The notes beneath the pieces were generated by a model that was not told the origin of the DNA, ran no database searches, and worked only from the letters and a program-made list of their open reading frames with translations. Position numbers and translations under genes: made by a program. Shown here piece after piece: positions 16,427-18,562 of a stretch of DNA of 64,000 nucleotides. Each line of letters starts with the position of its first letter. Positions within the stretch are counted from its first letter, which is position 1. Source of the DNA: Oscillospiraceae bacterium (lineage in GTDB: Bacteria > Bacillota > Clostridia > Oscillospirales > UBA929); contig JAIRUW010000009.1 in assembly GCA_031254195.1 (NCBI GenBank), positions 13,906 to 77,905 of the forward strand, given 5' to 3'.

Positions 16427-18160
16427 TCAGTCAAAGGTTTTCAGGGTATTGCCCAGGCTTTGGTCGATGACGGAAATGCTTATATAGGATTTATCGATAT
16501 TCTCCATAATCGTTTCGACCATACTTGTCACGGTCGCGATTGACTCTGCTGCCAAACCTGAGATCACCGCAGACTCCGAAACCGTGGTCTTTGTTTTGTG
16601 GGCCAGGCTGCGGATTTCCTGCGCGACCACGGCGAAGGTCTTTCCATGCTCGCCCGCCCGCGCTGCCTCGACCGACGCGTTTAGTGAGATGAGGTTGATA
16701 TACGTTGATATGGAGAGGATGTCGGCGGATATAGACTGATACCTCTCTATTACATCGTTGAGGGTGGCAATCGCGGTGTTGATCTCCGCCGACTTGCTCT
16801 TGATGTCGGACATATCCTCCGTGAGAAGGTTGATGCTGTTCATATTGGATGTCGCTATGCTTAAAATTGTCTTCTGCTTCTCAATGACGTCGTCACGCAG
16901 CATCTTTAAGCAGTTGGTCGGGGTGTCGAAGCCCATGGCAATCCTTTTTGCCATATCGTAACAGGAATTGGAGCCGCACGCGCCGCAATCGAATTTCCTG
17001 TTGGTTTCGTCATCTTTGTTCAATGCCATAAAAGCCTTTTCTATCGCTTGTTCCGATGCGGCATACCGCTTGCTGATCTTTGGCTGGTAGGCCCTAAGAA
17101 AATCATCCAGCTTCAGCGTCTGGTCGTATTCATGAAAGAGCTGCTCATATTGGTCGCGGTCAAACGCGCGCAATACGCTCTGCCGGTTTTTATCCATGAT
17201 GTTGCTCATCTCAAACCTGGTATGGTCATGGTCTATACCGGTGCCAATATTGCAGCCCTCCGCGCAGTTCAGAACGTCGAATACGGCGGGGAGGTTGTCC
17301 AGCCTCTCCTTTGCAAACGCTTTCAGCGATTCATATACATGCTCGCCTTCCGCCTGATCCACGCGCAGCCTTTTGCCGAAGTAGAACTCCACATTTTCCT
17401 TCAGCCCGCCCGGCATGGAGTATAAGCGCCCCAAGGCCGATTCGGGGTGGTCAAACCCGGTGGACTCTGCCGGGAGCTGGATGCCGTTCTCCTGTATATA
17501 TTGATAGATTTTTCTTAGCGTTACGTTGTACTTTACAAATCCGGTCTCCTCAAACTCGTTAGACTTCGCGACACAGGGAGAGAGGGCCGCGATGCTGTCG
17601 TTTACATGGCAGTACCGGTTCATGTAAATGGCGGTGCAGAGCATCGGGCTGTGCACCGGCGACAGATATTTCAGCAGGCCGTGCTCATGGTACTGGATGT
17701 AGTTGACGATGGCGGGGCAGGGTTGCGTAATCACAGACCTCGGTTTTTCCTTCTCAATTAGGCGGATGTGGGCCCATGTGCAGATGTCCGCGCCAAGCGA
17801 TACGTCATACATCTTTTTAACGCCGAGATTTTTCAGCCACGTGAGAAGCCGCCCGCTATCCGCGCCGGTCATGCGGTTGGCAGGCGCGACAATCATGGAG
17901 ATAGACGCTCCGTTTTTTAGGTCGTTGATAAAGCGTTCCGTGTCGTCTATGTAATCCCTTACATCGTGATGGCATGTCTCAATACACGACCCACAGGCGA
18001 TGCACCTGTCCCCGTCAACCAGTACCTTGAGCTGGTCATCCATCGTGGTGACATAGGACGCTCCTTCGACGGGACATGCGCGTATGCAACGGTTGCACCC
18101 CACACAGTTTTCCATTACGCTGGTAATGAGCTTTTGCATACGTATCGTCTCCTTATTCAA
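16427..18160 (-). CDS. [FeFe]-hydrogenase-like H-domain protein fused to a methyl-accepting chemotaxis signalling domain (sensory group C type)
   Basis: 2x[4Fe-4S] ([23 protein letters not shown]); H-cluster-like motifs TQPCP, [27 protein letters not shown] Fe-S motif; MCP core [28 protein letters not shown]. Confidence 0.88.
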   Translation of the reverse strand: [577 protein letters not shown]

Positions 18161-18187
18161 TTATGAAGGAAATTACGGCGCCGACGT

Positions 18188-18562
18188 CTATACGCGGGAT
18201 TTCAGGTGCTTGTCAATGCGTTGGCGGAGAACGGTAAAGTCGATCGGTTTGCAAATATAGTCGTTCGCGCCCCGGTCCCTCATTTCCATTTCCATCCTCT
18301 CGTTTGTGACGCCGGTCAGGAAGATGACGGGTATGCCGCTGTTTTTCTTATCGCCGCGGATACCCATCAATACCTCGTATCCCGTCATAGTGGGCATGTC
18401 ATAGTCAAGCAGCACCAAATCCGCGGGGTTCTCCGACATATACGTCAGCGCGTCTTTCCCCTCCGTAAATGTATGGATGTCATACGTACCGCTCAGCATG
18501 GATGCTATTAGATTGCACATCACTTTCTGATCGTCTACCGCTATGATGATGGGTTTGCTCAT
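18188..18562 (-). CDS. Single-domain response regulator
   Basis: AVDD...LLDYDMP...FLT...KP; 124 aa. Confidence 0.9.
   Translation of the reverse strand: MSKPIIIAVDDQKVMCNLIASMLSGTYDIHTFTEGKDALTYMSENPADLVLLDYDMPTMTGYEVLMGIRGDKKNSGIPVIFLTGVTNERMEMEMRDRGANDYICKPIDFTVLRQRIDKHLKSRV

Follow-up and report, generated by a model that had tools for sequence, protein, structure and literature searches.

How might a bacterium find its way along a gradient of molecular hydrogen? Termite guts hold very high and steeply graded H2, a setting in which hydrogen taxis should pay, and to our knowledge no receptor for such behavior has been demonstrated. Obvious candidates are the group C2 [FeFe]-hydrogenases, in which an H-cluster domain and the signalling domain of a methyl-accepting chemotaxis protein (MCP) share one polypeptide; this large, uncharacterised class is listed in HydDB as 'chemotactic (putative)', and MCP-linked H2 sensing has been proposed for it (Sondergaard, Pedersen and Greening 2016, PMC5037454). 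Here we examine one such protein, which we call Hyd-MCP, encoded on the minus strand (16427-18139) of a 64,000-nucleotide stretch of DNA from a termite-gut Oscillospiraceae bacterium (assembly GCA_031254195.1, contig JAIRUW010000009.1, positions 13,906 to 77,905; hereafter the window). A sequence-only reading of the locus had described a sensory [FeFe]-hydrogenase-like protein fused to a chemoreceptor tip, next to a gene for a stand-alone receiver, and we find the open reading frame (ORF), the motifs, the domains and the receiver gene all present in the sequence. A receptor for H2 (or redox) taxis is the best reading of this protein, its signal being putative.

The sensor module and its relation to known hydrogenases

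The ORF spans 16427-18160 and encodes 577 amino acids (aa) if a TTG start codon at 18160 is used. Direct reading of the DNA finds an ATG at 18139 that is preceded, at a spacing of 9 nt, by AAGGAG (18154-18149), and because this candidate ribosome-binding site sits where it does, the ATG is most likely the start, giving a 570-aa protein with the N-terminus MQKLITSV. Homologues of ~570 aa are in line with this choice, and residues are numbered from the ATG throughout. The database gene call (P0001, 538 aa) begins too far in and omits the first cluster.

Searched in its 577-aa form, the protein matches four Pfam profiles in succession: a Fer4 dicluster domain (9-67), Fe_hyd_lg_C (90-306, 86 bits), an Fe-S domain (PF04060, 389-417) and MCPsignal (457-558, 61 bits), the last covering only positions 15-119 of the 172 in its profile. 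NCBIfam models B1 and A for [FeFe]-hydrogenases match far below their cut-offs, as expected because the H-domain is divergent. An AlphaFold2 model (101 sequences; mean predicted local distance difference test score, pLDDT, of 87) depicts a soluble protein, and Foldseek matched it only to [FeFe]-hydrogenases in the PDB (~440 columns, E ~1e-17). No transmembrane (TM) segment was found in Hyd-MCP, its top 19-residue Kyte-Doolittle mean being 1.37, and neither PAS nor HAMP domains were detected by Pfam.

A search of a large protein collection returned >2,700 significant matches, of which the best 120 were aligned; these show 52-79% identity and a common architecture and length. The N-terminal F-domain (17960-18136, minus strand) carries two [4Fe-4S] motifs, C12, C15, C18, C22 and C46, C49, C52, C56. 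Within the alignment, C56 is Cys in 120/120 sequences, C46, C49 and C52 are Cys in 119 with one gap, and the first four are Cys wherever the N-terminus exists (103-106/120), the other sequences having gaps from truncated gene calls. The H-cluster domain that follows (17243-17893, minus strand) is built around L1 TQPCP (C141), L2 SPCVAKSNE (C189, K192, E195) and L3 DVLNCAEGC (C292, C296), and its four ligands, together with K192 and E195, are invariant among the homologues. A C-terminal Cx2Cx4Cx16C [4Fe-4S] motif (16910-16987, minus strand; C385, C388, C393, C410), which opens with the letters CGACGSNSC in Hyd-MCP, is likewise invariant. The full set of invariant or near-invariant elements comprises TQPCP, SPC(I/V)AKxxEF, FDVLNCxEGCNxGTG, the eight ferredoxin Cys and D-C385-x2-C388-x4-C393-x16-C410; because they persist across 120 homologues at such divergence, the motifs are, judged by their conservation, not products of chance.

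The departures from catalytic hydrogenases are just as regular. The position of the group A proton-relay Cys (C299 in CpI) is always Pro among the homologues, CpI residues M353 and M497 are replaced family-wide by Ser and Leu, and the group A proton pathway is not conserved in the alignment. The sequence-only reading had pointed out the four H-cluster Cys with their Lys and Glu, the exchange of the proton-transfer Cys for Pro within TQPCP, the two substituted Met residues and a short MCP domain with no TM segment, and each of these stands. It had also reported an extra CxxC-x4-C Fe-S motif; the motif exists and is really a full Cx2Cx4Cx16C, known from sensory hydrogenases (PMC8163306). Two further Cys, C120 (in GADIC; codon 17780-17782) and C168 (in SPMLC; codon 17636-17638), lie outside the classical H-cluster motifs and are invariant in all 120 homologues and also in kinase-fused relatives; by alignment, C120 is one helical turn before the CpI E279 position and C168 three residues past the SP of the SPQQ loop, and both lie close to where group A enzymes have their proton pathway.

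Which known hydrogenases does this combination resemble? The sensory classes M2e (group D) and M2f (group C) are defined by two N-terminal [4Fe-4S] motifs, a C-terminal Cx2Cx4Cx16C and loss of both C299 and the group A proton pathway (Land et al., PMC8163306), and Hyd-MCP has all of the features common to them: the N-terminal motifs, the C-terminal motif and the loss of C299. TamHydS of Thermoanaerobacter mathranii (group D/M2e) is alike in its two N-terminal [4Fe-4S] motifs, H-domain, Cx2Cx4Cx16C and missing C299, and also in M353S and M497L, an Asp before the first C-terminal Cys and a spacing of 25 from the first to the last C-terminal Cys (PMC8163306, PMC13104023); it differs in ending past the C-terminal cluster and in lying beside a HydABC operon, whereas Hyd-MCP runs on into a hairpin and sits elsewhere. 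TmHydS of Thermotoga maritima (group C/M2f; cited in PMC8163306) has the same Fe-S core in three parts and, like Hyd-MCP, a signalling domain beyond the C-terminal cluster, but its output is a PAS domain rather than an MCP hairpin, and its pocket Met positions are Ser/Gly rather than the Ser and Leu of Hyd-MCP. The PAS domain that is the M2f hallmark at this point is thus lacking in Hyd-MCP, where a single helix follows C410.

The closest architectural comparison comes from the same genome. On contig C21, upstream of its HydABC genes, a HydS-like protein is collinear with Hyd-MCP residues 1-420 and stops there; its residue at the C299 position is Ala (STACP) as against Pro in Hyd-MCP. Because this protein aligns to residues 1-420 only and the features match, Hyd-MCP is, by sequence comparison, an M2e-type core extended by an MCP hairpin. 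Going by features and description rather than by placement among HydDB references, it belongs to the group C2 type, and nothing contradicts membership; the original assignment to MCP-fused, sensory-type hydrogenases of group C accordingly fits the HydDB C2 class (PMC5037454). Beyond the HydDB description, it adds TQPCP, the two extra invariant Cys, a hairpin of ~22.6 heptads and the frequent absence of maturases. Our literature search found no report of a characterised group C2 member, and Hyd-MCP adds one more protein to a catalogued class that has none. The contig C21 locus itself (C21:55826-63945, outside the window) is a classical regulatory and structural hydrogenase cluster, encoding two 115-aa proteins, a 143-aa kinase-like protein, the HydS-like sensor, a PHP-like protein, HydC, an HATPase-like protein, a ferredoxin, HydB and HydA. 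The HydS-like sensor has 427 aa, with STACP, TPC, EISAC and a C-terminal CSSCGAPSC, and in HydA the motif TSCSP replaces TSCCP, as in A. woodii HydA1 (PDB 7q4v).

The M2e and M2f hydrogenases, whose published features Hyd-MCP matches, bind the H-cluster and turn over H2 slowly (PMC8163306, PMC13104023). Hyd-MCP might itself be a slow working hydrogenase merely tethered to chemoreceptor arrays in a metabolic role, as the low rates retained by TamHydS and TmHydS (PMC8163306) would allow. We regard this as very improbable: Pro always stands in for the proton-relay Cys, the group A proton pathway lacks conservation, no partner subunits are encoded nearby, and fusion to a signalling hairpin here, and to kinases in sister proteins, points to signalling. 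Those sisters, proteins of 1079-1314 aa, carry the same core (GADIC, TQPCP, Cx2Cx4Cx16C; 46-48% identical) joined to PAS-HisKA-HATPase-REC. Because the core exchanges its MCP hairpin for a kinase output among relatives, it presents itself in sequence as one input module with interchangeable transmitters, which is the signature of a sensor. The kinase-fused relatives are encoded at L150 964-4908, L151 1039-4614 and L152 1049-4288 (genomes G001, G013 and G012) and have the HydDB C1-like form.

A minimal hairpin and a single CheA

The signalling half of the protein is a minimal MCP hairpin (16430-16909, minus strand), modelled as a helix at 411-494, a turn at A495/G496 and a second helix at 496-569. 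The first helix, of 84 residues, begins straight after the last cluster ligand, C410, and the return helix has 74; together these ~158 helical residues amount to ~22.6 heptads in the AlphaFold2 model, at or under the shortest of the twelve MCP heptad classes, which range from 24H to 64H (PMC6943060). The 27-residue tip aligns with those of the 15 other MCPs in the genome and is canonical where CheA/CheW binding and trimer contacts are expected. The C-terminal arm, by contrast, has 73 residues as against 134-167 in the co-resident receptors. No consensus methylation site was found in the Hyd-MCP hairpin; those of the co-resident MCPs lie at about -92 and +97 from the tip, and the arms of Hyd-MCP end sooner (84 and 73-74 residues). 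Because the protein has no TM segment, HAMP domain, PAS domain or methylation site, the model suggests that the sensor is rigidly and directly coupled to a minimal hairpin with no means of adapting by methylation. The 15 other MCPs have a near-identical 44-residue tip, most with conserved methylation motifs at about -92/+97, and their genes are distributed over contigs C11, C15, C22, C27, C30, C51, C52, C55, C59, C74 and C76.

There is precedent for such a layout in Aer, Aer2 and HemAT, in which an MCP hairpin takes its input for gas or redox taxis from a cytoplasmic sensor that carries a cofactor. Those receptors hold flavin adenine dinucleotide (FAD) or haem in PAS or globin domains and have full-length hairpins, usually a HAMP domain and methylation/adaptation regions, whereas the sensor of Hyd-MCP is a multi-cluster hydrogenase module joined straight to a minimal hairpin. 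Hydrogen sensor/transducer proteins of termite-gut treponemes, a case that concerns spirochaetes, were reportedly described by Ballor, Paulsen and Leadbetter in 2012.

A receptor needs a kinase, and the genome (2.24 Mb, 80 contigs, 91% complete) encodes a single CheA with Hpt, P2, dimerisation, HATPase and CheW-like domains (P1-P5), adjoining CheW on contig C80, along with four more CheW-domain ORFs. The proposed check for cheA and cheW was thus answered in the affirmative, with a five-domain CheA. A CheA dimerisation domain occurs in 35/36 host genomes of family members, in one copy in each of the 35. Three CheW-domain ORFs of the present genome encode ~320 aa and may be CheV-like.

With this partner at hand, we consider it reasonably likely that Hyd-MCP is a soluble cytoplasmic H2-responsive chemoreceptor acting on the single CheA. 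H2 would equilibrate with a slow H-cluster and shift its redox or conformational state; the change would then pass via the C-terminal cluster domain into the hairpin and modulate the only CheA of the cell, which would produce taxis in the termite gut, where H2 gradients are steep. Resetting would proceed by electron exchange through the N-terminal clusters rather than by methylation, and the neighboring receiver and hybrid kinase could add a second input, sensitive to solutes, or serve this behavior as a phosphate sink. As a soluble protein of 570 aa whose sensor is wired directly to a minimal hairpin, with one CheA as partner, Hyd-MCP offers a clean and compact example of the class. The earlier interpretation as an H2 or redox taxis receptor therefore stays the best one, given that CheA and CheW are present and the protein is of the C2 class, with two qualifications taken up below: the maturases are absent, and co-transcription with the receiver is not conserved.

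Several findings weigh against an H2-responsive chemoreceptor, those on the maturases following in the next section. Group C2 has no tested member, and the C-terminal cluster of TamHydS gave no response to H2 (PMC13104023). The hairpin arm is about half as long as those of the co-resident MCPs, so that its fit into the same array is sterically doubtful, and the conserved neighbors of the gene belong to a classical phosphorelay rather than to the che genes. The last two points invite an account in which Hyd-MCP is not a chemotaxis receptor at all: its hairpin would bind the adjacent receiver or hybrid kinase, in the control of gene expression or some other behavior, or would build a separate cytoplasmic cluster outside the flagellar pathway. 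In 11-14 of the closest loci a receiver and hybrid kinases are the conserved neighbors, and che genes are not; in length the hairpin falls at or below the shortest listed MCP class (24H; PMC6943060), and it lacks methylation sites and has half the length of the other MCPs; and the sister proteins use a histidine-kinase output. Even so, we hold this account to be distinctly unlikely, as the tip residues for CheA/CheW binding and trimer contact are canonical, one CheA is encoded in each of 35/36 host genomes, and distant family members are without receiver and kinase neighbors. We also know of no MCP hairpin that regulates HisKA-type kinases.

Maturases and the H-cluster pocket

Can the genome that encodes this receptor candidate make its cofactor? 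The sequence-only reading had proposed to look for hydEFG and had counted a genome without maturases as evidence against itself, and here the search went the wrong way for it: neither profiles nor tblastn found HydE, HydF or HydG in the genome. Profile searches for all three gave nothing over the cut-off, and tblastn queries taken from a congener (HydG, HydF) and from loci of the family (HydG, HydE, HydF) returned only matches to GTPase domains. The genes that flank hydF and hydG in the congener (G005) map inside contigs C67 and C51 here, with other genes in the place of hydF and hydG. Across 26 genomes of the order, HydF and HydG occur in exactly the same 7 and are both missing from 19, and HydG exceeds the cut-off in only 14 of the 36 host genomes, being absent from 22. 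This genome could not supply the [2Fe] subcluster by the established pathway, and these results join the points listed above as evidence against H2 sensing by a mature H-cluster.

We judged incompleteness of the metagenome-assembled genomes (MAGs) an unlikely cause, since HydF and HydG co-occur among the 26 even when on different contigs, a relative of 10 contigs rated 100% complete has neither, and the syntenic sites are uninterrupted. H-domain genes are carried by 25/26 of these genomes, most including a canonical HydA (~325 bits). The absence of maturases weakens, and does not refute, the case for a mature H-cluster in this copy, and it is not decisive because the same genome keeps an intact HydABC that would need the same cofactor. 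Its HydA scores 712 bits against A. woodii HydA1, with the TSCSP motif in common, and because of this score and motif it does not look like an obvious relic. An explanation of the missing maturases by a dead HydA marked by TSCSP was rejected, the motif being shared by genomes with and without maturases and by A. woodii HydA1.

Within the Hyd-MCP family, the 22 hosts without HydG and those that have it do not differ in the pocket, every residue examined there being invariant in both. This includes K192 (K358 in CpI), E195 (E361), A85-P86 and P165, whose CpI counterparts touch nothing but the [2Fe] subsite or its ligands and which are invariant in all 22. Moreover, hydG follows Hyd-MCP within a few bases in 10 loci, in a termite-gut clade of Fibrobacterota and an 'Azoarcus' MAG; in one of them (L064 3230-8612), hydG (463 bits) is followed by hydE (250 bits, slightly below the cut-off) and then hydF (456 bits). 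No other H-domain gene lies within the 10 hydG-adjacent loci. This adjacency of hydG(EF) is the strongest genomic argument that the family uses a true [2Fe] cofactor. Another hydG-adjacent locus is L068 8001-11174, and eight further loci are alike.

These observations also bear on a reading that dispenses with the [2Fe] subcluster, in which the H-domain holds just its cubane and Hyd-MCP is a redox (energy-taxis) or O2/nitric oxide (NO) receptor on [4Fe-4S] clusters only, four clusters reading the ferredoxin pool or an oxidant and driving the same MCP hairpin. The absence of HydE, HydF and HydG from this and most host genomes speaks for it, as do the two N-terminal ferredoxin-type clusters, well placed for electron exchange with ferredoxin, and the fast reaction of TamHydS with O2 (PMC8163306). 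We nonetheless think it unlikely, because the residues that contact only [2Fe] are strictly invariant in all 22 HydG-less hosts, hydG(EF) lies directly behind Hyd-MCP in ten loci, and maturase-less genomes keep an intact HydABC, so that a lack of maturases does not equal a lack of cofactor. An H-cluster responsive to H2 remains the preferred sensor.

A comparable pattern has been described elsewhere: HydEFG are absent, despite active [FeFe]-hydrogenases, from most hydrogenase-encoding archaea and from some protists, and another route has been put forward (PMC11216029). The maturase pattern seen here may be a bacterial counterpart of that case, or it may reflect systematic loss in binning. Many genomes that lack known maturases retain canonical and sensory H-cluster proteins; in this Clostridia lineage and in most termite-gut hosts of the family, those kept without HydEFG include the Hyd-MCP sensor, HydS-like proteins and an intact HydABC. 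We suggest only tentatively, and would not ourselves favor, that they are kept under strong selection without HydEFG by virtue of an unrecognised [2Fe] route in bacteria, or with a different occupant in the pocket. If the pattern is true in closed genomes, it bears on H-cluster assembly outside the HydEFG paradigm.

Neighboring genes, relatives and transcription signals

Immediately 5′ of Hyd-MCP, a gene on the minus strand (18188-18562) encodes a stand-alone receiver of 124 aa (Response_reg, 87 bits). It keeps every phospho-acceptor and switch residue with CheY-like spacing (D10, D11, D53, T83, Y102, K105) and is predicted to be phosphorylatable. Further 5′, also on the minus strand (18637-21909), lies the gene for a hybrid histidine kinase of 1090 aa, in which Pfam finds two SBP_bac_3 domains, a TM region, HisKA, HATPase, REC and a weak Hpt match (18.8 bits, E 0.002, under the 24.6-bit cut-off). 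The two SBP_bac_3 domains, tandem and periplasmic, form its sensor, and the kinase may feed the stand-alone receiver.

Loci of the best 80 of 469 relatives, from species-representative genomes, were surveyed for these neighbors. A receiver orthologue (114-139 bits) lies directly 5′ of Hyd-MCP in 11 of the 80, each from a Lachnospiraceae or Defluviitaleaceae MAG by label, sharing its strand in 3 and divergent in 8; hybrid kinases of one homology cluster are adjacent in 14 loci, the window included; and more distant family members are without receiver and kinase neighbors. The association with receiver and kinase is therefore conserved in the closest clade, and co-transcription is not. As a proposed partner of Hyd-MCP, the receiver gains from being a conserved neighbor in 11 of the closest loci.

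Within the window, the transcription signals do fit a joint transcript. A sigma-70-like promoter, TTGAAA-16-TGtTATAAT (18593-18620, minus strand; 11/12 matches, extended -10), is the top site of the 8-kb region and falls between the hybrid kinase stop and the receiver start. Between Hyd-MCP and a convergent pyruvate kinase gene, a bidirectional intrinsic terminator (16369-16402) combines a 14-bp GC-rich stem with A and U runs (-43.7 kcal/mol, z = -4.7). Because a promoter-like site stands 5′ of the receiver and a terminator 3′ of Hyd-MCP, the two genes are predicted to form a two-gene transcript. The co-transcription first proposed thus agrees with the signals found here and does not extend to relatives, in which adjacency is conserved and the receiver is divergent in 8/11 loci. 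The gap between the two genes, initially given as 27 nt, is more likely 48 nt, counted from ATG 18139 to the receiver stop.

Relatives were collected with two family peptides, DVS[LI]GADIC and LSP[VI]HSPML, which retrieved 469 in 185,579 species genomes. Among the best 80, 34 bear the sample codes of higher-termite MAGs (Lab288, Th196, Emb289, Nt197, Co191; PMC7024585). Five are termite Fibrobacteres MAGs. Thirty-two of the best 80 belong to the JAIR-JAIT accession block, presumably a second termite MAG project. The closest 80 relatives would then be almost entirely termite-gut MAGs of many phyla, 32 of them assigned by this presumed origin of the block. Their host titles name several Clostridia families, Cloacimonadota, Fibrobacterota, Desulfovibrionaceae, other Deltaproteobacteria, 'Azoarcus', Synergistaceae, Acidobacteriota and Bdellovibrionota, and these labels are intermixed within the family tree. 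A copy from the same genus (G003) is 48% identical to Hyd-MCP, as against 59-60% for copies from Lachnospiraceae and Defluviitaleaceae and 79% for the best metagenome match. Because the labels are intermixed and the same-genus copy is less alike than those of other families, the comparison points to lateral spread of Hyd-MCP within the habitat.

In an H-domain tree of 26 related genomes, with the fragments L114, L121, L134 and L140 disregarded as a spurious long-branch group, Hyd-MCP falls in a well-supported clade of its own, separate from those of the group A-like, B-like and HydS-like proteins; the tree does not resolve how the major groups branch from one another. A second, more distant MCP-fused lineage is present in G001, G003 and G006, with proteins of 627-645 aa at 38-40% identity.

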